Assembly: GCA_021373015.1 (NCBI GenBank) | Contig: JAJFTJ010000005.1 | Location: 225,072-289,071 of the forward strand | Direction of reading: 5' to 3' | Origin: Nitrospiraceae bacterium | GTDB lineage: Bacteria > Nitrospirota > Thermodesulfovibrionia > Thermodesulfovibrionales > UBA1546 | Length of the DNA: 64,000 nucleotides | Shown: piece after piece, positions 39,333 to 61,353 of the stretch | How the letters are laid out: each line of letters begins with the position of its first letter | How positions within the stretch are numbered: position 1 is the first letter of the stretch | Translations under genes and position numbers: made by a program | The notes under the pieces: generated by a model | Told to the model about the DNA's origin: nothing | What the model saw: only the letters and a program-made list of their open reading frames with translations | Database searches by the model: none

Positions 39333-40571
39333 ATGGTTAAACTATTTACATACATAAAAGATAAAGTTTTTATATTCTTTGCTGTGTTCTGGCAGTCTGT
39401 TAAATCTTTTTTAAAGAACGACAATTCTAATATAGCAGCTTCATTGGCTTACCATTCTTTGTTTGCGATAATTCCTTTATTATTACTTTTGTTTTTTGCG
39501 CTCAGCTTCTTTATAACATCCTCAAGAGCAGTAATGTCCAGAATTACGTCTTTAATCTCCGAGTTTATTCCTTATTACAGCGAGACGATTCTGCAAGAAG
39601 TTTATTCTCTGTCAAAACATCAAAGTATATGGGGGATAATAAGCGTTCTCACTCTCATGTGGGCTGCAACACCGCTGGTTAGCACTCTTCGCAAGGCTTT
39701 TTTTGATATATTTAAAATAGAGGAAAGGCCTTCTTTTTTAAAAACAACCTTGCTTGATATTGGAGTGATACTTCTTACTCTCACGATCTTTGTTCTTCTC
39801 AGCTTCACACATGTGACATTCAAAAGCATACATATTTTAGGAGAAAGCACCGCTTTTTACAATGCAGCGTCATACACTGTTACAGTGATGATAATATCCG
39901 TATTTTATCTTGCATTTGTCCCTGTTAAGACATCATTTCTTTACGTTGCAACTGGCGCCATTATAACGACATTTTTCTGGGGAATTATCAGGCCAGTATT
40001 TGGATTGTTTTTATCTTATAACCCTCAGTATGGCATTGCCTTTGGTTCATTAAAAGCATTGTTTATAATCATAATATGGATTTATTATTCGTTCAGCGTA
40101 TTACTCTTTGGCGCAGAAATAATTGCCAATCTCAGAAGAAAAGATGTCTTGCTTATAAAAAAACTGTTTTATGAAGATTACAGCAGCAAAACAAAATCCA
40201 GACTTAAGAATAAATTCGGCAAAAGCTACAAAAGCGGAGACCTGATTTTTAAGCAGGGGCAGAAGGGTGACGAAATGTTTTATATCCTCTCTGGTGGCGT
40301 AAGATTAACCTTGCCATCCAAATTACAGAATAACAATGAAAACGAACAAATAATCAGAATTATGAAAAAAAATGAGTACTTTGGTGAAATGGCGCTTCTT
40401 ATTGGCACTCCCAGAACAACGAATGCTTATGCTGAAAATGATGATACAATTATAATTAAGATAAATCCTCAAAATTTTGAAACTCTTTTAAGAGAGGAAC
40501 CAAAGATTGCAACAATGCTGTTAAAAGAACTTGCCCAGAGGTTAAAAAAAACCAATGAATTTCTTTGTTAA
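39333..40571 (+). CDS. YihY/BrkB-family membrane protein fused to a C-terminal cyclic-nucleotide-binding domain
   Basis: N-terminus SNIAASLAYHSLFAIIPLLLL plus about six TM helices (YihY pattern). C-terminus GDLIFKQGQKGDEMFYILSG...YFGEMALLIGTPRTTNAYA (cNMP beta-roll with Arg-Thr). Start ATG 39333 or TTG 39264. Confidence 0.8.
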   Translation: MVKLFTYIKDKVFIFFAVFWQSVKSFLKNDNSNIAASLAYHSLFAIIPLLLLLFFALSFFITSSRAVMSRITSLISEFIPYYSETILQEVYSLSKHQSIWGIISVLTLMWAATPLVSTLRKAFFDIFKIEERPSFLKTTLLDIGVILLTLTIFVLLSFTHVTFKSIHILGESTAFYNAASYTVTVMIISVFYLAFVPVKTSFLYVATGAIITTFFWGIIRPVFGLFLSYNPQYGIAFGSLKALFIIIIWIYYSFSVLLFGAEIIANLRRKDVLLIKKLFYEDYSSKTKSRLKNKFGKSYKSGDLIFKQGQKGDEMFYILSGGVRLTLPSKLQNNNENEQIIRIMKKNEYFGEMALLIGTPRTTNAYAENDDTIIIKINPQNFETLLREEPKIATMLLKELAQRLKKTNEFLC

Positions 40572-40576
40572 TTAAA

Positions 40577-41272
40577 ATGGAGAAAGATAACAAAAAAGAA
40601 TTAATACAGGGATTTCTTAAAGAGATGCCTATTTTTAAAAGCCTGTCCGAACCTCATATAAACAAACTTGCAAAAGACTTTGTTGTCCTTCAGGCAAAAA
40701 AGGGAGAAACAGTATTCTACCAGTCAGATCAAAGCACTGATCTCTATATTGTTCTTGATGGCTCTGTCAGGGCTTCATTGTTGAATCAGGAAGGCCAAGA
40801 GTTAATCCTCGCCGCATTCAAGAAGGGTGATTTTTTCGGGGAGATGAGTCTTCTTGACGGGATGCCCAGATCTGCAACAATAATAGCTGTTGAAGATCTG
40901 ATATTAGCAATGCTGAAGAGAGAGCTATTTCTTTCTGCTGTTAAAAATGATCCCATGATAGCAATAGACCTTCTTTCTTCTGTTGTGCAGAGACTTAGAA
41001 CTGCAAATGGAATGATTGAATCTCTTGCATTTCTGGATGTCAGCCAAAGACTGATTAAGCTGTTTCTGCAGATTGCTTCAACTGGATCAGAAAAAAATAA
41101 CGAGGGATTTCTGCGTATTGGAAAAATAACGCATCGGGAACTTGCTGCGAGAACAGGCGCATCTAGAGAAGCAATATCAAAAGTCATAAAAGTGCTTATT
41201 TTCAGAAAGATTCTTAAAGAAGATGAGCGGCATTTTTTCATATCTCCCAAGGCTGAACAGGAGGTATTTTAA
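40577..41272 (+). CDS. Crp/Fnr-family transcription regulator (cNMP-binding type, no Cys)
   Basis: FFGEMSLLDGMPRSATIIA (Glu and Arg-Ser of the cAMP pocket). HTH ITHRELAARTGASREAISKVIKVL with an Arg-Glu pair. No cysteines, so not an Fe-S FNR. Confidence 0.9.
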   Translation: MEKDNKKELIQGFLKEMPIFKSLSEPHINKLAKDFVVLQAKKGETVFYQSDQSTDLYIVLDGSVRASLLNQEGQELILAAFKKGDFFGEMSLLDGMPRSATIIAVEDLILAMLKRELFLSAVKNDPMIAIDLLSSVVQRLRTANGMIESLAFLDVSQRLIKLFLQIASTGSEKNNEGFLRIGKITHRELAARTGASREAISKVIKVLIFRKILKEDERHFFISPKAEQEVF

Positions 41273-41286
41273 TCCAAACATACAAG

Positions 41287-42162: not shown

Positions 42163-42186
42163 CATAGAATAAAATAGAGGAGGAAT

Positions 42187-43356
42187 ATGTCTAAGAAAGC
42201 CATGAGATTAACTTTACTGTTTCTTGCAGTATCTTTATTCTTGCCTGTTGTTTCAAGTGCTCAGGTAAAATGCGTTAATTCTGAAGGAGAATCAGTGATT
42301 ATAAACAACGACATACCTTCAGCGAAGACAGAGGCAACAGCAAGGGCAAAATGGTCTGCTATTGAGCAAACAGTCGGAGTAGAAATAAAGGCACAAAGTG
42401 TTGTTCAAAATTTTGCACTGGTTGACGATGCAATCAGCAAGAATATAAAAGGAACAGTGCAAAGTTACAAGGTTCTGCTTGAGGACAACAGAAAAGATAC
42501 TTTCTGGGTGAAAATAAATGCCTGTATTGAGCCAACAAAAGCAAAAGATGCCTTGATGACCATGGCGCTTAACAATTCAGTTGCAGTATACATTCCTGCA
42601 AGAAAACCAAGGGTTATAAGCGAACATGATACCAAGAAAAGCAGTTACATACATACTAAAGATGAATATGACGAGACAAATTTTTTCTCTGAATCATTGA
42701 TTAACAAACTGCTTCAACAGGGCTATCAGGTTGCAGATATAGCGCCTACTCATGCAATAGAGGCTGCTGCTATTGACAGCGCCCTTAAGTCAGGTAACTA
42801 CATGACGTTAAGATCGCTGATGTACAAATTTCTGTCAAATGTTCTGATGATAGGCAAGATCGACTATACAATCTCGACCAAAAAAGGCGAAGATGTTGGG
42901 TATGGCATTAACATGCCTTTTTACGCTGTAACAACCAGGCTTACTTACAGGCTTATAACAAGAGATCAATCAGGAAGAAATTCTATCATTCATGCAGATA
43001 CTGGCGAAGCAAAAGGGCTTGCACTGAGTGTTGGAGACGCAACTGAAAAGGCGATTAAAGAACTCTCTGAAAAAATTACACCCACAATCCTTGATGTGCT
43101 TTCAAAGCATGTTGCCGGAGCTTCAAAAAAGATCAGCCTTAGCGTAAAAGGAGTCAGCGATATAAACACAAGCTTCAGGGTGAAAGAGATATTGCAGAAT
43201 ACAGCATGGGTCACCTCTGTGGAGGAGAAATCACTTGGAGAATTTCTTGTTGGTTATCCTGAAAATATTGTATATCTGATTAATAGTCTTTCGCAGAAAA
43301 ATTTTAAGATTTCTAATTTCACAGGCTACTCAGCAACTATGGAATACAGACAATAG
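42187..43356 (+). CDS. Exported protein with LPP20/FlgT-N-like N-terminal domain
   Basis: Signal peptide ...PVVSSA. SEGESVI...AKTEATARAKWSAIEQTVGVEIKAQSVV pattern. A middle alpha/beta region and C-terminal beta domain loosely recall FlgT. Confidence 0.45.
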   Translation: MSKKAMRLTLLFLAVSLFLPVVSSAQVKCVNSEGESVIINNDIPSAKTEATARAKWSAIEQTVGVEIKAQSVVQNFALVDDAISKNIKGTVQSYKVLLEDNRKDTFWVKINACIEPTKAKDALMTMALNNSVAVYIPARKPRVISEHDTKKSSYIHTKDEYDETNFFSESLINKLLQQGYQVADIAPTHAIEAAAIDSALKSGNYMTLRSLMYKFLSNVLMIGKIDYTISTKKGEDVGYGINMPFYAVTTRLTYRLITRDQSGRNSIIHADTGEAKGLALSVGDATEKAIKELSEKITPTILDVLSKHVAGASKKISLSVKGVSDINTSFRVKEILQNTAWVTSVEEKSLGEFLVGYPENIVYLINSLSQKNFKISNFTGYSATMEYRQ

Positions 43357-43378
43357 CTATGAATGGGAGGGGATTTTA

Positions 43379-44353: not shown

Positions 44354-44391
44354 CGATGCTTAAATTTAGTTTGAGATATAAGGAGGAAGAC

Positions 44392-45600: not shown

Positions 45601-45624
45601 TCAAAAACAACAAAGGAGGTAAAA

Positions 45625-46590
45625 ATGAAAAAAATACTTGTAGTTGCTTTAATGTTAGTTTTTGCAATTGTAGCTATTGCTATTGCGCAGAATCAGCCAG
45701 TTCCACCGCCATCTGAACCTAATGTATCTGTACCTGCTGTGCCAAGCAGCAGCTCTAAGATTGATGACAGATTCCAGAAAGCAAACGAATGGCTTAATCA
45801 GAGCAAACTCACAGTTACAGAAAATCAGACAGATGCATTTGTGAACGGGTACATACTGGTTGTTGCTGAAGGACTTCCTCAACCAGATGCAACCTCAATT
45901 GGCAAGAAGAGACTTACCGCAGAAAGAGCTGCGGAGGTGCTTGCCTACAGAAAACTCGCCGAGTTTTTGGATGGAGTGGCAGTTATCGGAGACACATTAG
46001 TAAAAGATGCTGAACTCAAATATGATGTTGTAAGGGCAGCAGTTGCAGGTTTTGTAAAAGGCGCTCAGGTTGTTCATAAGGAATATAACAAAGAAGAAGA
46101 AACAGCGCTTGTTATAATGAAAGTCGGGTTAAATGGCCCTGGAAGTTTTGCAGACGCAATGTATGCCAAAATACTCCAGCCTGATGTAAAAAAAGATCTC
46201 CAGCCCACACCAATCCCCCAGTACAAACATAAACCTGTGCCATTGGACAGCGTGTATGACAGTCTTATTATCGATGCAACTAAACAGAATTTTAGACCTG
46301 CATTGATAAACAGACTCTTCACAACAAAAGGAGAGGTCATATATGACCCTTCAAAGATCAGCCAGAAGGTATTGGTTGAGCAGGGATGCGGTGAATACAC
46401 AAACAGTGTTGACAAGGCAAAAGCAGCGCTTGAACAAAGAGGAGCAAAAAATCCTTTGATCATTCAAGCATCCGGTTCAGTAAATCCATCTGACCTTCAG
46501 GTTTCTGATGATGACGCAGTCTCGATATTCTCTGCCAATCAGAAATCAAGATTTCTGTCTGCTGCAAAAGTAGCTTTTGTATTAAAATAA
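45625..46590 (+). CDS. Exported LPP20/FlgP-like domain protein
   Basis: Signal peptide ...AIAIA. VVAEGLPQPDATSIGKKRLTAERAAEVLAYRKLAEFLDGVAVIGDTLVKD...VAGFVKGAQVV matches the LPP20-family pattern as I recall it. Confidence 0.6.
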   Translation: MKKILVVALMLVFAIVAIAIAQNQPVPPPSEPNVSVPAVPSSSSKIDDRFQKANEWLNQSKLTVTENQTDAFVNGYILVVAEGLPQPDATSIGKKRLTAERAAEVLAYRKLAEFLDGVAVIGDTLVKDAELKYDVVRAAVAGFVKGAQVVHKEYNKEEETALVIMKVGLNGPGSFADAMYAKILQPDVKKDLQPTPIPQYKHKPVPLDSVYDSLIIDATKQNFRPALINRLFTTKGEVIYDPSKISQKVLVEQGCGEYTNSVDKAKAALEQRGAKNPLIIQASGSVNPSDLQVSDDDAVSIFSANQKSRFLSAAKVAFVLK

Positions 46591-46598
46591 TTTTCATA

Positions 46599-46634
46599 TT
46601 GACTGCCTTGTTTTTTAAAAAACAAGGCAGTCAA
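46599..46634. repeat. 36-nt perfect palindrome / hairpin between two array genes
   Basis: TTGACTGCCTTGTTTTTT|AAAAAACAAGGCAGTCAA read directly. Begins 9 nt after the 45625 ORF stop and ends 7 nt before CAGGAG, the RBS of ATG 46656. Confidence 0.85.
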
Positions 46635-46655
46635 TTAAAACAGGAGCATTTAAAA

Positions 46656-47693: not shown

Positions 47694-47728
47694 AAGCAAT
47701 AGAAAGGATATCTGTTATATAAAATAAT

Positions 47729-49851: not shown

Positions 49852-52148
49852 AAATCAGGGGGTGCATCTTGAAGAAACTATTTTTAGTATTTTCAGTGTC
49901 AATGGTCATATTCTCTTGTGCCCCGTCACAAGAAATAAAAAAAGACAGCCTGGAAACTGTTTCAATTGCAGATGCAGAGCTTCCGAAAATGGTTGCAGTC
50001 CTTCCCTTTCAGAATCAGACACAGGAAATCGGTCTGGGGAATAAAGTCAGAAAATCTTTTTATAATCACTTTACTTCAAAACAATATAGAGATGTAAAGC
50101 CCATGATAGTTGATGAAAAAGTTGTTTATCTGGAAAAATCTACAGGTAAATCAATACTGGAAATAAAACCGCCTGATATATGTCAGCCCATAGGTTGTGA
50201 CGGTCTTGTTTACGGCAACGTGACTGATTTTAAAAAAGTCTTTGTTGGAATATATTCACAGCTTTCTATAGAGACTGAGGTCTGGATGATAAATGTAAAA
50301 ACCGGCAAGGAAATATTTCGCATAAAAGACAGCGTCACTTATCACGAAGGCAGTGTCCCTATGTCGCCTCTTGGCATAATAATGAGCGCTGTTACAGCTG
50401 CCATGAATCTAAGAGAGATCCAACAGGTACGGCTGGTAAATGAACTCGCCTATAAACTCAACGAAAAAGTCCCTTCACCAAAAAGCTTAAGCAAAGAAGA
50501 TCGTCCTGTAATAAAAGAAGTTCTCACAAATGCCAAAGAAAGCCCTTTTGGAAAAGGGAAAATAATAAGAGTAGGGCTGGAAGGAGAACCCGGAGCTGTA
50601 GCTATGTTTGATATCGGCAATTTTAAGAAAAATATTTTAATGAAAGAAACAAAGCCCGGAATTTATATTGGAGAATATCCGGTAATGCCTGGAGACAATA
50701 CTGCTGACATGCCGCTTGTAGCATATCTCAACAGACCAGGCGGACTTGAGAGCCAGTGGATCGACATAGCCGGGCTTGTAACTCTTGATACAACTCCTCC
50801 GCCTTCTGTTAAAAGTGCAAGGGCAAAAGGATTCCATGACAGAATTGAAATCACATGGGAACCTGTTAAAAACACTCCTGACCTAAAAGGATACGCTGTT
50901 CTAAGAAGCGAACAGCCGTTAAGCGGATATGTTGAGCTTGCAAAGATCGAGCTGAATACATTTGAAGATAAAAATGCAAAGCCTGATACTGTTTATTATT
51001 ACAGAATAATAGCATCTGACCAGACTGGCAATGAATCAGAAGTTCACGATCCGGTTAAGGCAATGATTATTTCCAAAGAACCTGTGGTTATTTCAGGTGA
51101 AATCAAGAAAGATACCGTGCTTTCCGGAATTTACATTGTTAAGGGGAATGTGTCAGTGCCCAAAGGATTGATGCTTACAATTGAACCTGATACAAGAATA
51201 CTATTTGCTGAAAATTCATCGTTAAAATCACAGGGGAAAATCATAATTAACGGAAAAGACTCACCTGTTGAGTTTATATCATCGGGAGAAAAAAGATGGA
51301 AAGGAGTTTTTATTGAGGCTGGAAACGTTTTACTGAATGGTCTCCGCATAAAAAATGCTGTAACTGCAATTTCACTTCAAAACACGGAAGGGGTGATTGA
51401 AAATTCTGTGATTACTGAAAGCGATACAGGTATCTATATATCCGGTACTCCGTCCGTAGCTGTTAAAGGTTCGGTGATTTCAGGGAATATGGTTGGCGTG
51501 AAATTACAAAAGACAGATGCAAAACTATCGCAGAATAATATATTCCAGAATAAAGAAGGGATTTCTGTCAGCGGTTTTTCTGGTGAGATAAAAGAAAACA
51601 ACATTTTTGACAACGATATAAATATTTCTTCCAAGCAAGAAATAAAAATTGCTGCAAATTATCTTGGTTCTATAAATATTGATGAAATGAAAACCAATGG
51701 GATAATAATTTCAAAAGCCTATGAAAATAAATTTCCCGAAGGCAAGATTGCGGATGCCGTATCGAATCCTTATTCCAAATTGACGCAGGAAGAACGACAG
51801 AAAAAATCAGCTGAGATTTTGATAGAAGCCGGGAATTACTTCAGGCAGAGAAATTACGGCAAGGCAGTTACATATTTTGAAGAAGCTTTAAAGTCTAATC
51901 CAACTGCTGAGACATATTATTATCTTGCTGTCTGCCATCAGGAAATGAAGGAAGATGACAAGGCTCTTAAATACTTAAAAGAAGGCGCTGAAAAATTTCC
52001 AAAAGATTCAATTTTACATAAGTCGCTTGGCATGATGTATTACCAGAAAGGCAATGAGGCTGAAGCGAAAAAAATATTCGAAGAAGTTCTGAGGCTTAAC
52101 CCGGAAGACAGACAGGTCAAGTTCCTTCTTGAGAGAATAGGCAAATAG
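49848..52148 (+). CDS. Multidomain lipoprotein: DUF799-like, FN3, parallel beta-helix repeats, TPR
   Basis: ATGA overlap. Lipobox VIFSC. KMVAVLPFQNQT...CDGLVYGNVTDF...VWMINVKTGKEIF (DUF799-like). IEITWEPV...YYYRIIASD (FN3). Repeated xGIxISGxxxxxIxxNxI units. C-terminal TPR. Confidence 0.75.
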   Translation: MKIRGCILKKLFLVFSVSMVIFSCAPSQEIKKDSLETVSIADAELPKMVAVLPFQNQTQEIGLGNKVRKSFYNHFTSKQYRDVKPMIVDEKVVYLEKSTGKSILEIKPPDICQPIGCDGLVYGNVTDFKKVFVGIYSQLSIETEVWMINVKTGKEIFRIKDSVTYHEGSVPMSPLGIIMSAVTAAMNLREIQQVRLVNELAYKLNEKVPSPKSLSKEDRPVIKEVLTNAKESPFGKGKIIRVGLEGEPGAVAMFDIGNFKKNILMKETKPGIYIGEYPVMPGDNTADMPLVAYLNRPGGLESQWIDIAGLVTLDTTPPPSVKSARAKGFHDRIEITWEPVKNTPDLKGYAVLRSEQPLSGYVELAKIELNTFEDKNAKPDTVYYYRIIASDQTGNESEVHDPVKAMIISKEPVVISGEIKKDTVLSGIYIVKGNVSVPKGLMLTIEPDTRILFAENSSLKSQGKIIINGKDSPVEFISSGEKRWKGVFIEAGNVLLNGLRIKNAVTAISLQNTEGVIENSVITESDTGIYISGTPSVAVKGSVISGNMVGVKLQKTDAKLSQNNIFQNKEGISVSGFSGEIKENNIFDNDINISSKQEIKIAANYLGSINIDEMKTNGIIISKAYENKFPEGKIADAVSNPYSKLTQEERQKKSAEILIEAGNYFRQRNYGKAVTYFEEALKSNPTAETYYYLAVCHQEMKEDDKALKYLKEGAEKFPKDSILHKSLGMMYYQKGNEAEAKKIFEEVLRLNPEDRQVKFLLERIGK

Positions 52149-52224
52149 CAGCTCCAATATAAGTAAGCAGGATTATGATTCTAATGATTTCAATTGCATC
52201 CAGAAAGAGGAGAAAATTAATAAT

Positions 52225-52614
52225 ATGAAAATGCCGGCTTTTGTTTTAATTTTTTTATTGCTAAATTTATCTCATGTTTTGCCTGTTGCATCCGAAACAC
52301 AGAACGATGCGATTGTTGCAGGAGTCTTGCACCTTGGTACAATCCCCCCTCTCCCTCAGCCTAATGAAACAGGATATTGGCTGAGTTCAGACGAGTTGGT
52401 TTATACATTAAAAGGTTCTAAGTCTGAAGCATCGACAGATGTTGTCGTGCTCACTGTGCCAGTAAATTTAAAAGAAAAAACCAAAAAACTTAAAGACCAG
52501 CATGTTGTGGTAATTGGAGATATGAACTGCATCGGCAATTGGGCGAGTGGTGCATACTGCAATATGCTTGTTAAACAAATAGATATGAAGACATCGGTCG
52601 AAAACAAAAAATAA
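52225..52614 (+). CDS. Small exported hypothetical protein
   Basis: Signal peptide ...VLPVAS, two Cys, GAGGAG RBS. No family recognised. Confidence 0.4.
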   Translation: MKMPAFVLIFLLLNLSHVLPVASETQNDAIVAGVLHLGTIPPLPQPNETGYWLSSDELVYTLKGSKSEASTDVVVLTVPVNLKEKTKKLKDQHVVVIGDMNCIGNWASGAYCNMLVKQIDMKTSVENKK

Positions 52615-52635
52615 ACTTAAAGGGAAAATAGAACA

Positions 52636-53001
52636 ATGAAAACATTAAAGACTTTAATTTTTGTATTTATCTTGGTTTTGTTCATTGCGCCAATAACACA
52701 CGCAGGAGATGTCGAAGATCTCATCGGTATCTCGTTAAACTACAGCAAAAAAGAGGTCACTATCAATGTTGTGGGTTCAGGATGCACAGATAAGGGCGAT
52801 TTTCTTTTTGAAATGAAGAACGATGTTCTTACTGTTGTTCGCACAAAAATAGATTCCTGCAAGGCAATGCAGCAAGAAGTCAGCCTTACATATTCTTTTA
52901 AAGAAGCAGGGATCTCGCCTAATAAACCTTTTAAAATAGCCAACAGATTTATTGCTAACATATATATTGCAAATATGCGGCCAGCAAAAAATGGTAAATA
53001 A
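52636..53001 (+). CDS. Small exported hypothetical protein
   Basis: Signal peptide ...APITHA, two Cys. No family recognised. Confidence 0.4.
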   Translation: MKTLKTLIFVFILVLFIAPITHAGDVEDLIGISLNYSKKEVTINVVGSGCTDKGDFLFEMKNDVLTVVRTKIDSCKAMQQEVSLTYSFKEAGISPNKPFKIANRFIANIYIANMRPAKNGK

Positions 53002-53314
53002 ATTTTTTGTAGTTATTTCTGGCATATGCTCAACAGCAAGTTTTTATCTTGCATACATGACGATAAAGACTGGAGACATAAGCGGCGCATGGCTTTTTAT
53101 AAGTTTTGGATTATTGTTTTGTATGTCTCCGCTCATAATTTTTATAAGGTTTTTAGCAAGAAAGAGCAGGTTGTTTGAAAGCATAGACAAAACACTTTCC
53201 GAAAAACCAGAGCCAAGAACAACCTTTGTACCTCACTGGTTTATTATGACAATGATAATTGCGGCTGGCGTTTTAATACTTGCAATTATAATCACCCCAA
53301 TATTATTCAGATAA
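52991..53314 (+). CDS. Small integral membrane protein
   Basis: Three hydrophobic segments. ATG 52991 overlaps the upstream stop by 11 nt. Confidence 0.4.
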   Translation: MVNKFFVVISGICSTASFYLAYMTIKTGDISGAWLFISFGLLFCMSPLIIFIRFLARKSRLFESIDKTLSEKPEPRTTFVPHWFIMTMIIAAGVLILAIIITPILFR

Positions 53315-53407
53315 TTATTTTCGAGACTTTTTTTAGTTCATTAAATACACAAGGCTGGTTTGTTGGTATATGTTAAAATATAAAAAATTTTCTTTTGGAG
53401 GAAGACC

Positions 53408-55033
53408 ATGAAAAATAAAGTTTTGCAAATACACGCTTTGTTAATCCTTGCTTTTATTTTTGCATCATCAGGATTTATTCATTCAGCTAATGCTGAGACC
53501 GCACCTGTATTTAAGATTAAGGGAATCATTGTTTATTCCGACAGGGCAATGATAAAAAAAGAATCTGTTGTCCCAGTCAATAAAGGCGAGAACATCATTG
53601 TAATCACAGGCGTAACTGCAGGCATGGTCGATCAGTCTTTGCAAGTGAGCACAAAAAGCAAGTCTAATATAAAAATAACTGATGTAAAAGTTGAAAGAAC
53701 CTATCTTCACAAAACACAACTAGAAAAAACCCAGAAACTTCGAGCCAGGCTGGACAATCTAAATGAACTTATAAAGAAAAATGCTGACGAAATACTTGCT
53801 TTGAACAGTTCAATTGATTTTGTCAAAAAAGTCATCCCATTCTCACAGAATCAAAAACCAACACTGACTGATCTCTCCTCATATATGAAATTCATGGAAA
53901 AATCTATTTCTGAAAATCTCGAAAAGATAGCTAGGATAGAAGTAAAACAAAAAAAATTACGCGAAGAAAGCAAGTCAGTTGAAAATGAGCTGAAAAATAT
54001 AAATTCAGAACAGGAAAACAGCAAAGACATAATCATTCATTTATATGCCGGAGATGATGCAAGAGAGGCAAACATAGCTGTTTCCTATATAGTTACTATG
54101 GCTGGCTGGCACCCCCAATATGATGTAAGGGCTGATTCCAACTCATCAAAAATAGATATAAGTTATTTTGCATTAATCAGCCAGTCTACAGGGGAAGATT
54201 GGAAAGATGCAAACGTAGAGATCTCAACAGCCAAACCATTTATTTTTAGTACACTGCCTGAACTTACAGCATGGAATGTTGATGTCTATCAATACAAACC
54301 TCTTCAATATCAAAAATCTCTTGCTCCAACAAAAGGGAAACTCGCAAAAGAATTCGATGAAATGAAACTAGAGGGTTCTGAAATGCCTGAGGAAGTTCAG
54401 GTCAAAGCAGAAACAACATCATTCAGTTTTATTATGCCTTGGAAGTTAAATATACCATCAGATAATAATCCTCATAAATTTCTTATTTCAGCTTCAAATA
54501 AAGAATCTAAATTTGAGTATTACGCAGTGCCAAAATTATCAAAATACGCATATCTCAAATCCAGCGCTCAAAACCCATTCTCGTTTCCCATGTTGATTGG
54601 CGAAATGAATGTTTTTCTTGACGGAAGGTTTGTTAACACCTCGTCCATCAACAGAACAATTGTGCCTGACGAGGCCATTAACCTTTCGCTGGGCGTTGAC
54701 GAAGGGATAAAAGTCGAGAAAAAACTCCAAAAGAAGTTTACTGAAGCTTCCGGCGTATTTTCAAAAAATACCAGGATAAAATATGAATATTCCATTGATG
54801 TCATAAACGGGAAAGGCAAGGTTATTGATATAACACTCAATGATAATTTTCCAGTATCAAGAAACGAGCAGATAAAAACAGAACTTGAGAGTCCCAAGAA
54901 AGAAGAGGCGAAGATCTCAAATGACGGGATAATCAGTTGGGATATGAAGCTCAATCCTGGTGAAAAAAGAAATATTTCCGTTAAATTCGATGTCGAATAT
55001 CCACAAAACCTAAAAATAATCGGACTTGAATAA
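53408..55033 (+). CDS. Exported DUF4140/DUF4139 (MuiA-like) family protein
   Basis: Signal peptide. IIVYSDRAMIKKESVVPVNKGENIIVITGVTAGMVDQSLQVS N-terminal pattern, central coiled coil, C-terminal beta region, as I recall for this family. Confidence 0.6.
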   Translation: MKNKVLQIHALLILAFIFASSGFIHSANAETAPVFKIKGIIVYSDRAMIKKESVVPVNKGENIIVITGVTAGMVDQSLQVSTKSKSNIKITDVKVERTYLHKTQLEKTQKLRARLDNLNELIKKNADEILALNSSIDFVKKVIPFSQNQKPTLTDLSSYMKFMEKSISENLEKIARIEVKQKKLREESKSVENELKNINSEQENSKDIIIHLYAGDDAREANIAVSYIVTMAGWHPQYDVRADSNSSKIDISYFALISQSTGEDWKDANVEISTAKPFIFSTLPELTAWNVDVYQYKPLQYQKSLAPTKGKLAKEFDEMKLEGSEMPEEVQVKAETTSFSFIMPWKLNIPSDNNPHKFLISASNKESKFEYYAVPKLSKYAYLKSSAQNPFSFPMLIGEMNVFLDGRFVNTSSINRTIVPDEAINLSLGVDEGIKVEKKLQKKFTEASGVFSKNTRIKYEYSIDVINGKGKVIDITLNDNFPVSRNEQIKTELESPKKEEAKISNDGIISWDMKLNPGEKRNISVKFDVEYPQNLKIIGLE

Positions 55034-55073
55034 ATAAACACTGATCTTTTATTTCAGCAGGAGAATATTTTTT

Positions 55074-58000
55074 ATGAAAATAGATTCAATTTTTAGAAAA
55101 ATAGCGCTTTTATTAATGCTTGCAATAACTTTAATTATCCAACAAAGCTCTTTTGCAGCTGATAATGCTAAAGAAGCTGAGAAACTCTGGGAACTTGGAG
55201 AAAAGGCATACAATTCAAAAAAATATAATGAAGCTCTTTCTTATTATCAAAAATCTTTATCATTATGCGCGGCTGATCTTGAATGCAGATCCTCTAACTT
55301 TAATGGTCTCGGCAGGAGTTATGAGGCGCTTGGCGATGATAAAAAAGCGCTTTCGTATTATGAAGAGGCTTTGAAAATTGAAAGACAGAGAAACAATAAA
55401 GACGGTATTGCAACCAATCTGTTCAATGTTGGAGCAATATACAGAGAGACATTCAACCAATACGAAAAGTCTTTGATTTTTTTAAAAGAATCAGAAAGGA
55501 TTTTCAGGGAACTCGGCGATAAAACAAGCCTGGCAATTGTTCTTTTTCATTCAGGCAAAGCGTTAAATTCTCTCGGAAAATACCAAGACGCGATGTCGTA
55601 TTTCAATGAGTCAATTAAGCTGAATAGGGAATTGAAAGACACACAGGCGGTGGCGGCAAATCTCAATCTGATAGGCAATGTTTATGCAAAACTCGGTCAG
55701 TATGATAAACCCATCTCTTATTACGAAGAGGCGCTTGCCATCAATAAAAAAATAAATAACCAGCTGGAAATATCTATAACTCTGACAAACATAGGCGATG
55801 CATATGCTGACCTCATGAAATATGATAAATCTATTCCATATTATATGGAGGCACTCGAGATACAAAAAAAGAACAACTTCAATCTCGAAATGTCAGTTAC
55901 ATTTAATAATATGGGCGCGCTTTACGACAACCTAGACCAGCATCAAAAAGCTGTTTCCTATTATGAGAATGCTTTAAAGATAGGCAGAGATCTACGGAAT
56001 GAACCGACTATTGCCACAGCGCTGAATAATATCGGCAATAAATATTCTGACATAGGAATGTTTGACAAAGCGCTTGCATATCTTAATGATGCTCTTGTTC
56101 TTGAAAAAAAATTAAACAGGCCTATGTCTCTAACATATGTTTTAAATAATATTGGCATGCTCTATTTTAAGCTTGGCAGGTACGATGAATCAATTAATTA
56201 TCTAAATGATGCCTTGAAAATTGACAGACAATTAAACAATCCTCATTCCATCGCTCTCAGGCTAAATAATATCGGCGCAGTTTATCTCAAACAAAAAAAA
56301 TATAAAAATGCAGAAAATGTATTTTTAGAAAGAATGATGCTGAAGGAAAGGATCAAGCCAAATGTGTTGCTTCATCCCGGCCTGATACAGGTTTATCTTG
56401 AGACAAACAGATTTAATGAAGCACAGATACTGATTCAGGAAAACCCGCCAACATGGAGAAATAGCATGAACCGTCATTTTGATTATCATGTCCAGATGGG
56501 CATGGTGTTAAAAGGCAAGGGAGTGCTTAATGATTCATCTCAAGAGTTCCTAAAGGCTGCAAAGATAATAGAAGAGATGCGCCAAACAATTAATGAAAAA
56601 ACAGGTTTTTTTGGTGGGAGCCGATATATTGGCCGCCTCACGCCTCATAGGGAACTTGTTAATATGCTTTCAGAGCTGACAGAGAAAAAGACAAGGATGC
56701 CTGATGTATTTAATGCATACGGAAAAGACCCTGCTTCTGTTGCTTTTTATTTTGCAGAGCTTACAAAGGCACGAACTCTCCTAGAAACAATAGCTAATTC
56801 TTCAAAAGGATATGATGAATCTGAAATCCCGGAAAGCATTAGAAAAAAAGAAAAGGGACTGTTTGAAGAACTCAGCTTGATAGAAAAAAACTGGGAGAAG
56901 GCATTGTCACAAGGAGAACAGGAAGTAAAAAAACTATCTCAGAAAAAAGAAGATGTCTTAAGGAAATTAGAATCTCATATATCCCTTTTGCGAAGAGATT
57001 ATCCTAGATATGCTGCCCTGAAGTATCCGCGGCCTTTATCCCCTGTAGAACTGCAGTTAAGAGAAAAGGAAGTTCTGGTGGAGTTCAGTATAGGAGATAA
57101 CACAACCACTGTATTTGTGGTGAAAAGCAAAGGAGTCCAGAATGTCCACAAGATAAAAATTACAAAAGAAGAACTTGAAAGAAGGGTGAAACAATTTTTG
57201 GAACCTTTTGTTTCAAACAGACCTTTGGATTTTTCATCAAAATCAGCAAAGGAATTATATGATTTATTGCTCTCTGATGCATTAAAAAATATTAAAGACA
57301 CTGAAAGGCTAATAATAGTTCCGGATGGTATTCTCGGACTCTTGCCGTTTGAAGCATTACTTGTTAAAGAAGGAAGCAATCTAAAAGAACATCTTTATGT
57401 AAGCGACAAGTGGACGACAACTTATTCCCAGTCTGCAACAGCCCTTGCACTTACACGAATGTTAAAACCATCCCAGGCAAATAAAATTTTCTTCGGCATA
57501 GCAAACCCGGTCTATGAAAAAAATGATCCGCGCTATGTTGCTTACAAACAAGGCAAGCCGCAAAAATCTTTACTTGCCCAGAATTTGAATCAATACGCAT
57601 TTAGAGGCATCACAATTCTTCCAAAAACCGGGTCAGAAGGCAAGTGGGAAGAAATCATGTATCCGCCACTTCCTGAAACAGAAACAGAAGTAAAAACAAT
57701 TGCAAGGCTTTTTAATGTTCAGCCTATACCGCCTGATGTACTTCTGAATATTTCAGCGAATGAAACAAATCTAAGAAAAGTAGCGTTAAAAGATTACCGC
57801 TATCTTCATTTTGCCACACACGCTGACCTCCCAGGGAAAGTGCAGGGCATTACAGAGCCTTTTATAATTCTTGGCCAGGTAGAAAATAAAGACAATGACG
57901 ACGGGTTCCTGACTTTAACCGAGGTTTTGGAACTAGGTTTTGATGCAAACATGATAGTGCTTTCTGCATGCTCCACAGGCAAAGGGAAAATTATTGAAGG

Positions 58001-58232
58001 GGAAGGAGTTTCAAATTTTGCAAGGGCATTTCAACACGCAGGAGCAAGAAGTGTTATTGTGAGCCTCTGGGAAGTAGCATCAAAAGAAACGGTCGAATAC
58101 ATGGAGAGCTTCTACAAGCATATAAAATCCGGTAAGAGCAGCACAGAAGCATTGAGACTCACGAGAAAAGAAATAAAACAAAAATATCCCAATCCGTTTT
58201 ACTGGGCAGTTTTCATCCTGCACGGAGAATAA
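55074..58232 (+). CDS. Exported TPR-repeat CHAT-domain (caspase-like) protease
   Basis: Signal peptide ...QQSSFA. About 10 TPR units (YYEEALxIxxxxxN). CHAT dyad context YLHFATHADL and MIVLSACSTGKG. Confidence 0.9.
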   Translation: MKIDSIFRKIALLLMLAITLIIQQSSFAADNAKEAEKLWELGEKAYNSKKYNEALSYYQKSLSLCAADLECRSSNFNGLGRSYEALGDDKKALSYYEEALKIERQRNNKDGIATNLFNVGAIYRETFNQYEKSLIFLKESERIFRELGDKTSLAIVLFHSGKALNSLGKYQDAMSYFNESIKLNRELKDTQAVAANLNLIGNVYAKLGQYDKPISYYEEALAINKKINNQLEISITLTNIGDAYADLMKYDKSIPYYMEALEIQKKNNFNLEMSVTFNNMGALYDNLDQHQKAVSYYENALKIGRDLRNEPTIATALNNIGNKYSDIGMFDKALAYLNDALVLEKKLNRPMSLTYVLNNIGMLYFKLGRYDESINYLNDALKIDRQLNNPHSIALRLNNIGAVYLKQKKYKNAENVFLERMMLKERIKPNVLLHPGLIQVYLETNRFNEAQILIQENPPTWRNSMNRHFDYHVQMGMVLKGKGVLNDSSQEFLKAAKIIEEMRQTINEKTGFFGGSRYIGRLTPHRELVNMLSELTEKKTRMPDVFNAYGKDPASVAFYFAELTKARTLLETIANSSKGYDESEIPESIRKKEKGLFEELSLIEKNWEKALSQGEQEVKKLSQKKEDVLRKLESHISLLRRDYPRYAALKYPRPLSPVELQLREKEVLVEFSIGDNTTTVFVVKSKGVQNVHKIKITKEELERRVKQFLEPFVSNRPLDFSSKSAKELYDLLLSDALKNIKDTERLIIVPDGILGLLPFEALLVKEGSNLKEHLYVSDKWTTTYSQSATALALTRMLKPSQANKIFFGIANPVYEKNDPRYVAYKQGKPQKSLLAQNLNQYAFRGITILPKTGSEGKWEEIMYPPLPETETEVKTIARLFNVQPIPPDVLLNISANETNLRKVALKDYRYLHFATHADLPGKVQGITEPFIILGQVENKDNDDGFLTLTEVLELGFDANMIVLSACSTGKGKIIEGEGVSNFARAFQHAGARSVIVSLWEVASKETVEYMESFYKHIKSGKSSTEALRLTRKEIKQKYPNPFYWAVFILHGE

Positions 58233-58252
58233 TAGTTTTAGGAGGAGAATAT

Positions 58253-59113
58253 ATGCATAGATTGCTTGTTTTATTGTTTTTAGCGTTGTTCAATATATCA
58301 AGCCTTTATGCCGCTCAATCCACAATAACTGAGTCTGAAGGCTATGCATGTATGGGCGAGGACAAGTCAAGAAAACAGACAGAACAGACTGCTCTTACAG
58401 ATGCAAAGAAAAAGGCAGTCGAAAAAACAACAACTTATATAAAAAGCGAGACACATGTTAAAAACTTTGAACTCGAAAAAGACATTGTGGCTGCCTATGC
58501 AAATGCAAATGTAAAAATAATCCAGGAACTTGAGAAAAAGTGGTATAAAGACGACGCTATGGGTGACTGCCTGAACATAAAGATCAAGGCAGAGATAATA
58601 CCCGATGAAAAAGCATTGGAAAAAATTTCAAAAGACAGTTTGATAACTGATGATCCTTCTGTTCCGCTATATATTAAAATGTGGTCTGAGAAAAAAGAAT
58701 ACAAACAGGGCGAAAAAATGAAGGTTTATATAAAAAGCAACAAACCTTTTTACGCAAGAGTTGTTTATAAGGATGCAGCCGGCAAACTTGTCCAGCTTTT
58801 GCCTAACCCTCATAGGGAAAATAATTATTTTAACGGCGGGGTTGTTTATGAAATACCCTCTGGGGAAGACAAGTTTGAACTCGAGGTAGCGCCTCCATTT
58901 GGCAAGGAAAACATTATTGTTTATGCAAGCACATCACAATTAGGAGAGATTGATGTAGAGCCGCTAAGCGGAGTGTATGATATAAAAACCAGATCGGGGA
59001 TAGTTGGGATCAAAACACGCGGAGTTGTTCTGAAGGAAAAACCAACAGGCAATAAACAGCAAATCCCTGCTGAATTTTCAGAAACAGCGGTATTTTTGAA
59101 AACAACGAAATAA
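58253..59113 (+). CDS. Exported protein: LPP20/FlgT-N-like domain plus DUF4384 domain
   Basis: Signal peptide. N-terminal domain is paralogous to that of the 42187 ORF. C-terminal YARVVYKDAAGKLVQLLPNPH...FELEVAPPFGKENIIVYAS matches the DUF4384 pattern. Confidence 0.65.
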   Translation: MHRLLVLLFLALFNISSLYAAQSTITESEGYACMGEDKSRKQTEQTALTDAKKKAVEKTTTYIKSETHVKNFELEKDIVAAYANANVKIIQELEKKWYKDDAMGDCLNIKIKAEIIPDEKALEKISKDSLITDDPSVPLYIKMWSEKKEYKQGEKMKVYIKSNKPFYARVVYKDAAGKLVQLLPNPHRENNYFNGGVVYEIPSGEDKFELEVAPPFGKENIIVYASTSQLGEIDVEPLSGVYDIKTRSGIVGIKTRGVVLKEKPTGNKQQIPAEFSETAVFLKTTK

Positions 59114-59130
59114 TTTTCTTAAATGCATAA

Positions 59131-59886
59131 ATGAAAATAAAATATTCCGGATTATTTGATACCTTTACTGAACCGCTAGGGCTTCTTTTTTATGTGTTCA
59201 AAAATCTCCCTTATTTAAAGGTTGATGCTGTTCGATCAGTCTTTCTAAAACAAATTTATTTTGGCGGGATAGAAACATTCAGAAAAATGATGATAATCGG
59301 GATACTCATTGGCATTGTTATAATCACTCAGATAACAAGTCTCGTTGGATTGGGAAGCGCTGTGCTTACCGGTAAAATACTTGTCTGGGTCGTAGTCAGA
59401 GAACTGGGTCCTTTACTGGCTGCAATAATTATTATTGCCCGCAGCGTGACTGCAGTCTCATCGGAGCTTGGAGCGATGAATGTGCAGGGCGAAATAGAAA
59501 ACATTGAAACTATGGGAATAGACCCTGTGCGTTATCTCATCTTGCCAAGAGTCGCAGCCTTGACGTTGTCGTCAGTAATGCTTACCTTCTATTTTGAGTT
59601 TGCAGCCATCTTGGGAAGCATAACTATAACTTCAGTTTTCTGGGGTGTGCCGTTTGAACAATTTGTGAAAGGCATACTGTCATCTCTCAGTATGAATGAT
59701 CTGACTGTCTCACTTATTAAAAGCCTTTTTTTTGGTCTGCTGATTTCATTAGTCAGTTGCTATGAAGGATTTAAAGTAAAAAAAAGCATTACCCAGATAC
59801 CACAGGCTACAACCAGGGCGACGATACAGAGCCTGTTTCTTGTATTTATTTTTGATGGTATAATAACTTTTATATTTTTCATATGA
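59131..59886 (+). CDS. mlaE: MlaE-type ABC transporter permease
   Basis: VVRELGPLLAAIIIIARSVTAVSSELGAMNVQGEIENIETMGIDPVRYLILPRV is the MlaE/Ttg2B signature. Confidence 0.85.
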   Translation: MKIKYSGLFDTFTEPLGLLFYVFKNLPYLKVDAVRSVFLKQIYFGGIETFRKMMIIGILIGIVIITQITSLVGLGSAVLTGKILVWVVVRELGPLLAAIIIIARSVTAVSSELGAMNVQGEIENIETMGIDPVRYLILPRVAALTLSSVMLTFYFEFAAILGSITITSVFWGVPFEQFVKGILSSLSMNDLTVSLIKSLFFGLLISLVSCYEGFKVKKSITQIPQATTRATIQSLFLVFIFDGIITFIFFI

Positions 59887-60539
59887 TAAAAATTGAATGT
59901 GTAAGCCTGAAGGGGCTATTGGAATGTGCAGATTATTCAGTCTCAAGAGGCGACATCTGTGCTGTTGTCACAGAAACAGGTTTTGATAAGAGTCTTCTGC
60001 TCCAGCTCTTGACAGGATTTGTAAAACCTGATTCAGGCAAAATATATATTTTAGGAAAAGATTTATCAATAATTTCAGACAATGAGCTCAATGAGGTAAG
60101 GCAAATGATGGGAGTAGTTTTTGAAAATGGCGGGCTAATAAGTAATCTGAAAGTAGGTGAGAACATCATGTTGCCTGTTTCCTATCATTCACCTGAATCT
60201 CATCTGTATTCAGAACAAAAAATGATGAAACTCCTGGAGCAAGCAGGATATGATGAAGAAATCACAATACTTCCCGGACCGCTTCCATTGTACAAGAAAC
60301 GTCTTGCAGGACTTGTAAGGGCAATGCTTACGGAGCCTGAACTTATAATATATGACTCTATATTTGATGGGTTGAGTCAGAATGTCAGAGAAAAGGTGCA
60401 TAATCTTGTGTCTTCATTTCATTTCGAGAAAGAGGGGAGGGCATCCTTATTTCTTGCTTCAGACAAAACATCTCTCAGAGACATAAGCCCATCAAAAATT
60501 CATATCCTGAAAAACGGGAGATTTGATGAAAGAGACTGA
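59883..60539 (+). CDS. MlaF-position ABC ATPase homologue with degenerate catalytic motifs
   Basis: Walker A TETGFDKS instead of GxSGxGKS. Q-loop FENGG. Signature region LPLYKKRLA instead of LSGG. Walker B LIIYDSI (no Glu). H-loop ASD. Confidence 0.75.
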   Translation: MIKIECVSLKGLLECADYSVSRGDICAVVTETGFDKSLLLQLLTGFVKPDSGKIYILGKDLSIISDNELNEVRQMMGVVFENGGLISNLKVGENIMLPVSYHSPESHLYSEQKMMKLLEQAGYDEEITILPGPLPLYKKRLAGLVRAMLTEPELIIYDSIFDGLSQNVREKVHNLVSSFHFEKEGRASLFLASDKTSLRDISPSKIHILKNGRFDERD

Positions 60540-61353
60540 TCCTCGGTTTATTAATCTTGGCAGAAAAGCAGTGTTGTTCTTTGCAATCGCTGTCATAGGG
60601 ATTATTGCCACGCTTATTTTTATCGGCATGGAAAGTGGCATATTCACAAAAACATTCAGGATACATCTCACTGTGGAAAAAGGCACAGGATTTTTTGAAG
60701 GAATGCCTGTTAAGCTGTCTGGCTTTAAAATTGGCAAGATACAGGAACTCTCGCTTGATGAGAACGCAAAAGTTAAAGTTGTCTTGACAATTAATAAAAA
60801 ATATCAAAAATGGATTCGACAAGACTCAAAAGCGCTTCTTGGGAAAGAAGGCTTAATAGGCGAGAGCATTATTGCCATTACCGTTGGCAGTATGGATAAA
60901 CCAATTATACAGAATGATTCATCCATACAATTTGAGAAAGGGAAGGGCGTTGAGGAAATTCTTGAAGAAGTAAAGCCGCTAATAGGTGAAATAAAAAATA
61001 TACTTGTTTATATAAACGACCCGCAAGGAGATCTGAAAAAAACAATCAGCAATCTAAAAACACTTTCATCAGGATTGTTAAATACCAGAGCGAATGTTGA
61101 TAAGGCAATATCAAATATTACTCCTGCAATGGCAAAACTTGACAGAACAATGGACAATCTCGAAAAAACAACAGCCAAACTTAAAGACGCAGTTGATAAA
61201 TCTTCTCCAAAAATACCTGCGGTCATGAGCAAGACAGAAGACGCACTTGACGGCACAGACGAGGTCGTGAGATCACTGAAACAGATATGGCCTATCAGGT
61301 TGTTCATCGAAGAACCCAAAAACAAACAGATATATGGTGATAGCTATGAATAG
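60526..61353 (+). CDS. mlaD: MlaD-type MCE-domain protein
   Basis: N-terminal TM helix. MCE core GMPVKLSGFKIGKIQELSL. C-terminal coiled coil. ATG 60526 is preceded by GGGAG. Confidence 0.85.
   Translation: MKETDPRFINLGRKAVLFFAIAVIGIIATLIFIGMESGIFTKTFRIHLTVEKGTGFFEGMPVKLSGFKIGKIQELSLDENAKVKVVLTINKKYQKWIRQDSKALLGKEGLIGESIIAITVGSMDKPIIQNDSSIQFEKGKGVEEILEEVKPLIGEIKNILVYINDPQGDLKKTISNLKTLSSGLLNTRANVDKAISNITPAMAKLDRTMDNLEKTTAKLKDAVDKSSPKIPAVMSKTEDALDGTDEVVRSLKQIWPIRLFIEEPKNKQIYGDSYE

Follow-up and report, generated by a model that had tools for sequence, protein, structure and literature searches.

A TPR-CHAT protein with a predicted signal peptide, encoded between a MuiA-family protein and a DUF4384 protein in a Nitrospiraceae bacterium

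We analyzed a stretch of 64,000 nucleotides (nt), hereafter the window, from contig JAJFTJ010000005.1 of a Nitrospiraceae bacterium (assembly GCA_021373015.1, positions 225,072 to 289,071 of the forward strand), in which 3 closely packed genes on the + strand (window positions 53408-59113) encode a DUF4140/DUF4139 protein of the MuiA family, a TPR-CHAT protein, and a DUF4384 protein, the last of which is called the partner below. The open reading frames (ORFs), their sizes, and the intergenic gaps of 40 nt (DUF4139 to CHAT) and 20 nt (CHAT to DUF4384) are exactly as claimed by a first-pass annotation of the same DNA, and the NCBI annotation already names all 3 products by their domains. AGGAG-type ribosome-binding sites were found 5' of the CHAT gene and of the DUF4384 gene. 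A scan of positions 41000-60000 returned promoter-like sites at the level of chance (56 vs. 51 ± 6) and no convincing + strand terminator between genes, and Rfam gave zero matches over the whole window; operon structure is supported by spacing alone. The features of the 3 genes, with the evidence for each, are as follows.

53408..55033, + strand: DUF4140/DUF4139 protein of the MuiA family, 541 amino acids (aa) (Pfam, TIGR02231, signal-peptide rule)
55074..58232, + strand: predicted TPR-CHAT cysteine protease, exported by prediction, 1052 aa (Pfam CHAT, orthologs, AlphaFold2 model, Foldseek)
55074..55157, + strand: predicted Sec signal peptide of the CHAT protein, aa 1-28, MKIDSIFRKIALLLMLAITLIIQQSSFA followed by ADN (signal-peptide rule, homologs)
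55161..56588, + strand: TPR superhelix, aa 30-505, about 10 TPRs of 40 residues plus helical extensions (Pfam TPR_12/TPR_1, model helices)
57240..58229, + strand: CHAT (caspase-fold) domain, aa 723-1052 (Pfam, AlphaFold2 model, Foldseek)
57819..57821, + strand: codon of the predicted catalytic His916 in HFATH916AD (invariant in 76 orthologs)
57969..57971, + strand: codon of the predicted catalytic Cys966 in LSAC966STG (invariant in 76 orthologs)
58253..59113, + strand: DUF4384 partner protein, exported by prediction, 286 aa (Pfam, family, model, Foldseek, gene context, fusions)
58316..58606, + strand: Lpp20/FlgT_N-like N-domain of the partner, aa 22-118, with invariant C33 and C106 (Foldseek, profile matches, alignment)
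58673..58936, + strand: DUF4384 beta-sandwich of the partner, aa 141-228 (Pfam, Foldseek)
58967..59041, + strand: conserved partner segment modeled as disordered, aa 239-263, GGVYxIKT..xIGxKTR256GVxLKEK (model confidence, alignment)

By profile, motifs, and fold, the 1052-aa protein is a full member of the CHAT/TPR-CHAT family (PF12770, clan CD). The Pfam CHAT profile matched aa 723-1051 at 3.6e-57 (194.5 bits vs. a cut-off of 24) over model positions 2-288 of 289, and TPR_12 matched the N-terminal part at 7e-60. The intact His/Cys dyad read from the sequence in the first-pass annotation is present, with the motifs HFATHADL (H912, H916) and LSACSTGKG (C966) fitting H-x-A-x-H-(G/A) and L-S-A-C and with H912, H916, and C966 invariant in an alignment of 76 orthologs from several phyla. 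Full-length orthologs of approximately 1045-1060 aa and 45-62% identity were identified in Nitrospirota/Thermodesulfovibrionia, Syntrophales, Geobacter/Trichlorobacter, Deferribacterales, Nitrospinota, and Holophaga. The AlphaFold2 model (predicted local distance difference test, pLDDT, 88.1; predicted template modeling score, pTM, 0.81) has 20 helices between aa 30 and 421, which is the approximately 10 TPR units counted earlier, and helical repeats onward to about aa 505; between these repeats and the CHAT domain lie a helical/coiled segment (553-650) and then a small beta subdomain (666-694). Foldseek searches of the PDB matched human separase (9hma, 4.6e-15), DdvA (8rw5/8rot, 5.3e-14), and Csx29 (8eex_B, 1.4e-12), each with a probability of 1.00, and DdvA had the best global template modeling (TM) score among the matches (0.44-0.51). 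The TPR part resembles the peptide-binding TPRs of LGN/Pins (TM score by target, TMt, up to 0.74; 23% identity). Searching PDB sequences with aa 643-1052 in phmmer returned no Csx29, DdvA, or separase match (for Csx29, none at E ≤ 1).

Protease activity is predicted from this family membership and the conserved dyad. It is very unlikely that the CHAT domain is instead a non-catalytic scaffold, a pseudo-protease organizing partners through its TPRs: the CHAT site of DdvA is described as incomplete and in a resting state, and mutation of its dyad gave no phenotype (PMC11506125), but the His, the Cys, and the surrounding motifs of the window protein are invariant in all 76 orthologs, and the Pfam match spans the whole CHAT model.

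All 3 proteins were positive under a home-made signal-peptide rule (positive n-region, hydrophobic 10-mer, and small residues at -3/-1) and have N-termini of the Sec (signal peptidase I) type, with predicted cleavage between A28 and A29 in the CHAT protein, after aa 1-29 in the DUF4139 protein (HSANA/ETAP), and after aa 1-20 in the partner (LYA/AQS). The rule was also positive in 111 of 120 CHAT-family homologs, the 9 that failed being mostly truncated or mis-started sequences, in 114 of 120 DUF4384 homologs, and in 110 of 118 DUF4139 homologs, and in 0 of 7 cytoplasmic control proteins of the same window, in agreement with the cleavable signal peptides proposed for the CHAT protein and both neighbors in the first-pass annotation. 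Across the CHAT family, the leader is variable in sequence and keeps its hydrophobic character, and it is followed directly by a conserved mature N-terminus, (K/N)EAExLWELGEKAY, which is the pattern expected of a signal peptide that is cleaved off and not of a conserved transmembrane anchor. Relatives of the DUF4384 partner bear OmpA or LPP20 domains. The CHAT protein and its neighbors are therefore best described as putatively periplasmic or envelope-located; of the periplasmic or surface protease module proposed earlier, the export of all 3 proteins stands under the rule, and residence and activity are read from sequence. A cytoplasmic Craspase-like or conflict effector, with the hydrophobic N-terminus as a gene-calling artifact, would suit the TPR-CHAT architecture and the Csx29-like fold. 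We regard it as extremely improbable, given the signal-peptide character kept in 111 of 120 homologs with a conserved mature N-terminus after it, the ribosome-binding site at the called start, the export of all neighbors by the same rule, and the failure of phmmer to find similarity to Csx29 in the PDB. Further, no Cas7-11/gRAMP, NTPase, or cas protein was found among 28 Pfam-scanned proteins from 32292-64000, which are nearly all ORFs of at least 100 aa not nested in longer ones.

The partner matched Pfam DUF4384 (PF14326) at 5.4e-26 (90.9 bits vs. a cut-off of 27) over aa 149-228. Its family, of approximately 285 aa, has 60-83% identity across Nitrospirota, Nitrospinota, Desulfobacterota, and others and is thus better conserved than the CHAT protein (45-62%), with 210 members at E ≤ 1e-30 in a library of representatives at 50% identity. 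The parts of the model, in order, are a signal peptide, an N-domain, the DUF4384 beta-sandwich, a disordered-looking segment, and a last beta strand. The N-domain (aa 24-116 in the model, beta-alpha-alpha-beta-beta, with 2 invariant cysteines) matched Lpp20 in Foldseek (5ok8, probability 0.92, TMt 0.43), whereas the FlgT_N profile stayed below its cut-off (E 0.021, 15.8 bits vs. 28.8), and a relative in homolog locus L021 matched LPP20 at 7.6e-5, below the curated cut-off; as modeled, the N-domain appears Lpp20-like by fold, and by profile it falls short of family membership. The same type of N-domain was identified in 2 other window proteins (42187-43356 and 45625-46590) and in proteins combining the N-domain with TPRs 3' of DUF4139 in related loci. 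The DUF4384 beta-sandwich resembles macroglobulin/Ig-type domains (2p9r, TMt 0.65, Foldseek), and the partner profile had no significant match among PDB sequences.

We compared gene neighborhoods in homolog loci (L numbers), with genes called by a simple longest-ORF scheme, and fusions in representative proteins (P numbers) of the 50%-identity library. Single-linkage clustering merged C14, CHAT, WD40, and TPR neighbors and was replaced by domain-specific hidden Markov models (HMMs) plus Pfam. On the CHAT side, 55 non-redundant ortholog loci with at least 3 neighbors each were counted over ±6 genes, and a DUF4384 domain was present in 19 of them (adjoining in 12), WD40 in 19, Peptidase_C14 in 17, DUF4139 in 7, a CHASE2 cyclase in 5, and FecR in 4. 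The trio of CHAT, DUF4384, and DUF4139, whose co-occurrence elsewhere the first-pass annotation had marked for checking, recurs in L004, L005, L018, and L032 (Nitrospirota) and in L021 (Deferribacteraceae), where the DUF4384 domain lies inside a 466-aa LPP20-like protein.

On the partner side, 30 of 82 loci have the gene adjoining C14, 6 have it adjoining CHAT, and 7 have one of these nearby, many of the others being short contigs; where the flanks reach 3 kb or more on each side, C14 or CHAT lies within ±3 genes in 13 of 16 loci. The immediate same-strand neighbors of the partner (n = 89, Pfam) include Peptidase_C14 in 26 cases, WD40 in 18, and TPR in 13, and the WD40 neighbors are WD40-C14 fusions. 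A signal peptide or lipobox was identified by a strict rule in 23 of 39 complete C14 neighbors. By our own estimate, which was not computed, chance adjacency of few-copy families is about 1%. The statement in the first-pass annotation that DUF4384 often accompanies caspase or CHAT genes is strongly borne out by the 19 of 55 CHAT loci and the 13 of 16 well-flanked DUF4384 loci. The pairing with CHAT that it proposed is recurrent, but the usual protease neighbor of the DUF4384 partner is Peptidase_C14, not CHAT.

The partner module is fused in frame 5' of WD40-Peptidase_C14 in P0362, P0366, and P0431, as a whole module in the first 2 and as DUF4384 plus the C-terminal part only in P0431, and these fusions are evidence for a functional link between the module and the WD40-C14 protease. 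In the Ser/Thr kinases P0418 and P0508, a transmembrane segment is followed by all parts of a partner-like module, from the Lpp20-like domain through DUF4384 to the conserved tail. The module is thus reused as an extracytoplasmic domain of kinases, which points to a sensing or binding role. Among the accessory domains of cyanobacterial orthocaspases, DUF4384 ranks fifth in frequency (PMC8283722), and the literature searched, in which the domain is rarely mentioned, gives no function for it.

Other C14 and CHAT arrangements were observed in the compared loci. In L079 (10919-13009), L124, L098, and L134, the partner adjoins an exported Peptidase_C14 fused to an FGE-sulfatase (C-type-lectin-like) domain, not to WD40; the FGE-sulfatase-type domain is targeted by diversity-generating retroelements in other bacteria (10.1101/2023.09.22.558884). 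Large PDZ + thioredoxin + WD40-C14 proteins are encoded in L003 (13226-23174) and L165 (12112-17104) together with TPR-PDZ proteins, a further FecR-like protein, and a SHOCT protein, and the L003 module locus also encodes a serpin; a single putative periplasmic neighborhood would thus combine several proteases with an inhibitor. In Desulfobacterota (L037/L038, L047/L048, L043, and L061), at least 2 TPR-CHAT paralogs alternate with WD40-C14 and TPR(+OmpA)+DUF4384 proteins, as if the entire module had been duplicated in tandem.

The disordered-looking segment of the partner is conserved in sequence: aa 232-273 have pLDDT < 50, yet Y242, T246, and R256 are invariant in 54 sequences, a KTRG motif is near-invariant, and both the C14 fusions and the kinase fusions retain the segment. 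The loop around R256 may be a docking or cleavage segment, a suggestion from the model that we hold doubtful because the loop is kept in kinase-fused modules and no matching motif was found in C14 proteases. The loop is without a separase ExxR motif. Two more specific ideas were considered. R256 as a protease-specific cleavage site was weakened by the retention of the loop in kinase-fused modules, and the KTRG loop as a mimic of the C14 autoprocessing linker, which came from a local BLAST similarity in P0362, was dropped since no such motif was found after the catalytic Cys in 47 C14 proteins.

The upstream gene encodes a full-length member of TIGR02231, the mucoidy inhibitor MuiA family (3.6e-109, 365.8 bits vs. 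a cut-off of 112.6; aa 36-537, positions 1-523 of 524), with Pfam matches to DUF4139 (1.2e-58) and DUF4140 (1.2e-17). After the signal peptide, the protein has a beta domain at the N-terminus and next a coiled coil (about aa 100-210), with DUF4139 as the C-terminal domain; its DUF4139 profile matched only coiled coils among PDB sequences. In the 7 CHAT loci with DUF4139, the gene is adjacent or one gene off and usually directly downstream, whereas the order in the window is inverted; DUF4139 also stands directly after DUF4384 in L146, L150, and L154. Most DUF4139 orthologs examined have unrelated neighbors. In 5 loci centered on DUF4139 orthologs of other lineages, no CHAT gene lies within 8 kb, and we therefore read the DUF4139 protein as widespread and exported, with a place in the module in some lineages only. 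Of the 2 partners named in the first-pass annotation, DUF4384 is thus recurrent and DUF4139 facultative only (7 of 55 CHAT loci; 0 of 5 DUF4139-centered loci), and DUF4139 as an obligate CHAT partner was rejected on these counts. MuiA of Pseudomonas aeruginosa (PA1494), a member of this family, is tied to the sigma-SbrI envelope-stress response (PMC10418997), which by analogy would fit an envelope role for the DUF4139 protein and is silent on proteases; unlike the arrangement here, no protease partnership is described for MuiA.

The 3 genes end a longer same-strand run. Upstream, at 41404-53314 (+), 12 consecutive genes encode products that all have signal-peptide or lipobox N-termini, as do all 15 proteins encoded at 41404-59113. 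The island proteins include a TIGR04219 outer-membrane beta-barrel, a FlgT_N/LipL46-like protein, 2 CsgG/LpoB-like proteins, an SLH-domain protein, a transglutaminase-core protein, one lipoprotein combining GNA1162-like, NosD beta-helix, and TPR parts, and several small proteins of no known family, and from these predictions the island looks like machinery for an envelope or surface structure. It also lies 5' of CHAT in L004/L008 and partly (SLH + 321-aa protein) in L014 and L036, with related genes nearby in L054. The 321-aa protein listed below recurs 5' of CHAT in L004, L014, and L036. Further features of the run are the following.

40565..41272, + strand: Crp-family regulator binding cyclic nucleotide monophosphates (cNMP), at the head of the same-strand run (Pfam)
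42187..43356, + strand: exported 389-aa protein sharing the partner N-domain (BLASTP 9e-06, FlgT_N 4.2e-5, N-domain HMM)
45625..46590, + strand: exported 321-aa protein with a weak N-domain match (N-domain HMM 9.5e-05)

Between the island and DUF4139, 3 small ORFs of 129, 121, and 120 aa (52225-53314, +) have hydrophobic N-termini and no family match; those at 52636-53001 and 52952-53314 overlap by 50 nt, and the third alone has a homolog in the compared loci (L052). Downstream, genes for MlaE, MlaF, MlaD, and a 309-aa TPR lipoprotein (LYAC lipobox) occupy 59131-62263 (+), starting 17 nt 3' of DUF4384. L004/L008, L083, and L101 have this DUF4384-to-MlaE junction too, and in L032 and L054 the module has Mla genes in its vicinity.

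This setting raises the alternative that the CHAT protein is a maturation or assembly factor for an upstream surface or outer-membrane structure (the CsgG-like, Lpp20/FlgT_N-like, SLH, transglutaminase-core, and GNA1162-like/beta-helix proteins), with housekeeping processing of Lpp20-domain proteins. The unbroken same-strand run of exported proteins at 41404-59113, the recurrence of the island 5' of CHAT in the loci just named, the N-domain that the partner has in common with 2 further window proteins, and the housekeeping genes around the locus (Mla genes, trmD, and rplS) are what such a factor would be expected to sit among. Nevertheless, the island is missing from most ortholog loci outside a few Nitrospirota, dozens of loci pair the DUF4384 partner with C14 or CHAT without it, and the synteny may reflect mere shared ancestry, and we consider this explanation unlikely.

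The Crp regulator at the head of the run comes just after a gene for a membrane protein of the BrkB/YihY family with a fused cNMP-binding domain (both genes, 39264-41272, +). The window Crp regulator is 39% identical to the gene directly 5' of DUF4384 in L146/L150/L154, and its homologs were found in 13 sources (the window and 12 loci). They stand directly 5' of DUF4384 also in the CHASE2/FecR loci L151, L160, and L109; in L014 and L036 they take the same head position ahead of island genes, and L054 has one close to its related genes. Near the module, both FecR proteins and CHASE2 nucleotide cyclases were identified in L003, L005, L017, and L018, and a cyclase only in L032. In the metagenomic loci L146, L150, and L154, the gene order is CHASE2 cyclase-FecR-CHASE2-FecR-Crp-DUF4384-DUF4139-C14-CHAT, with CHAT detected only in L154, and L151 and L160 have the first 6 genes of this order. 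From these gene neighborhoods, Crp is a possible regulator of the module, which would put it under cyclic-nucleotide control.

A second alternative is an immune-like periplasmic surveillance, in which TPR and WD40 arrays would sense invader molecules and activate proteases, with DUF4384 as sensor or relay and a CHASE2-cyclase/cNMP/Crp output, by analogy with the phage sensing proposed for DdvA and with cytoplasmic caspase/CHAT conflict systems. DdvA, the closest global structural match, is a periplasmic TPR-CHAT protein controlling a defense island (PMC11506125); the neighbors in related loci include WD40-C14, C14-FGE-sulfatase, CHASE2 cyclases, FecR, and Crp, and the DUF4384 module as the extracytoplasmic domain of Ser/Thr kinases fits a sensor role. 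Set against these, PADLOC recognized no known defense system at the locus and returned generic TPR matches only, no cas, CBASS, or toxin genes lie nearby, and the window has no cyclase or FecR gene. The orthologs are apparently single and strongly conserved (60-83% for the partner) in a housekeeping setting, unlike fast-evolving defense islands, and such a role is in our judgment improbable.

We favor, with moderate confidence, an exported and active TPR-CHAT protease whose groove binds a segment of a client, with the DUF4384 protein as cognate substrate or as sensor/adaptor and the DUF4139 protein as an accessory. Following Sec export, the signal peptide would be removed between A28 and A29 and the CHAT protein would act as a periplasmic cysteine protease of the separase/Craspase/DdvA type. 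Its approximately 10 LGN-like TPRs would form a groove binding an extended peptide, and the C-terminal CHAT domain (H916/C966) would cut the peptide so bound. The Lpp20-like/DUF4384 module may be a generic companion of exported caspase-fold proteases, either TPR-CHAT or WD40-Peptidase_C14; here, the partner would most likely dock on the repeat array, as a substrate or as a sensor/adaptor gating the protease. The DUF4139/MuiA-like protein would be a facultative accessory envelope protein. This module would be part of an operon-like run encoding 15 exported proteins, with the Crp-type cyclic-nucleotide regulator at its head, and related genomes would connect it to FecR proteins and to nucleotide cyclases of the CHASE2 type. 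Its probable function is proteolytic, in signaling or remodeling at the cell envelope. A broader version is that a pared-down copy of a widespread caspase-like envelope signaling system is encoded in the window. In this version, exported clan CD proteases (TPR-CHAT or WD40-C14) would detect a periplasmic cue through their repeat arrays and a dedicated Lpp20-like/DUF4384 protein, acting as sensor or substrate, and the resulting cleavage would be relayed via FecR-like proteins and CHASE2 cyclases to Crp-type regulators. This version is tentative, and we would not expect it to hold.

Several points weigh against the favored reading. The structure model of the partner is moderate only (pLDDT 66.6). 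The partner loop is retained where the module forms the extracytoplasmic part of Ser/Thr kinases, which argues that the loop is inherent to the module and not a cleavage site made for the purpose; the loop motif, sought after the catalytic Cys of C14 proteins, was found in 0 of 47. With C14 left uncounted, 25 of the 55 CHAT loci have no partner family within ±6 genes, so the protease does not require a neighboring partner gene. Some of the synteny comes from closely related Nitrospirota genomes and is hence not independent, and the signal-peptide calls were made with our own rule, not with SignalP.

Bacterial caspase-like proteases have been studied almost only as cytoplasmic defense or cell-death effectors, and DdvA is the single characterized periplasmic TPR-CHAT protein, with no known signal or substrate. 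The window offers a tractable pair, a soluble and by prediction exported protease with an intact dyad and a small, highly conserved candidate partner. The pairing with CHAT or C14, the 3 fusions, and the DUF4384-type Csx30 domains suggest a general role for DUF4384. If the broader, envelope-signaling version is right, DUF4384 would serve caspase-fold proteases in general as a docking or substrate domain, linking periplasmic systems, orthocaspase fusions, and the DUF4384-type C-terminal domains of Csx30. The CHASE2-cyclase link could give a first hint at what CHASE2 domains sense.

In the literature searched, we found no soluble Sec-exported TPR-CHAT family of approximately 1050 aa, no recurrent pairing of CHAT with a three-part DUF4384 protein whose other partners are exported C14 proteases, and no link of a CHAT module to CHASE2/FecR/Crp genes. 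Among characterized systems, DdvA of Myxococcus xanthus, a transmembrane anti-sigma factor with a periplasmic TPR-CHAT part (PDB 8rw5/8rot; PMC11506125), comes closest. Both proteins have a TPR array and then a CHAT domain with a canonical His-Cys dyad, extracytoplasmic in DdvA and by prediction in the window protein, and DdvA is the best global structural match (TM score by query 0.44-0.45, TMt 0.51, E 5e-14). The export of a TPR-CHAT fold is therefore not unprecedented, and the first-pass annotation, which named the best-studied bacterial CHAT proteases as cytoplasmic, needs correcting on this point, since a periplasmic TPR-CHAT is already known in DdvA (PMC11506125). However, DdvA has a transmembrane helix, a cytoplasmic zinc-binding anti-sigma domain, and the extracytoplasmic function (ECF) sigma partner DdvS, whereas the 28-aa signal peptide of the window protein leads straight into TPRs and no sigma-factor domain was found among its Pfam-scanned neighbors. 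Sequence identity between the 2 is approximately 10-11%, DdvA is without a three-helix motif and is confined to few lineages (Myxococcota), and no DUF4384 or DUF4139 partner is described for it.

Csx29 of the type III-E Craspase shares the TPR-CHAT architecture and fold (8eex_B, E 1.4e-12, TMt 0.47) and has a dedicated co-encoded protein partner, Csx30; some Csx30 C-terminal domains are DUF4384, and Csx29 cuts within the C-terminal domain of Csx30 (10.1101/2022.08.17.504292). In contrast to the window protein, Csx29 is cytoplasmic, Cas7-11-bound, and RNA-activated; the window protein has a signal peptide, is approximately 300 residues longer, and has no detectable sequence similarity to it. 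Separase, the top Foldseek match, likewise combines a helical-repeat N-terminal region with a C-terminal caspase-fold protease, and its control by bound securin is a parallel for pseudosubstrate regulation, but it is eukaryotic, nuclear/cytoplasmic, and much larger, and its global TM is low (0.2-0.39). Bacterial orthocaspases and Peptidase_C14 proteins, with WD40, FGE-sulfatase, or DUF4384 accessory domains, share the caspase fold and the His-Cys dyad, and the same DUF4384 partner module adjoins these proteases or is fused to them. They differ in that the window protease family is CHAT, not C14, and that orthocaspases have been published mainly as cytoplasmic or cell-death factors (in cyanobacteria), whereas the C14 neighbors described here have signal peptides or lipoboxes. 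By family, the window protein is an ordinary CHAT-domain protein, and it is a real, by prediction periplasmic, variant of a known protease type.

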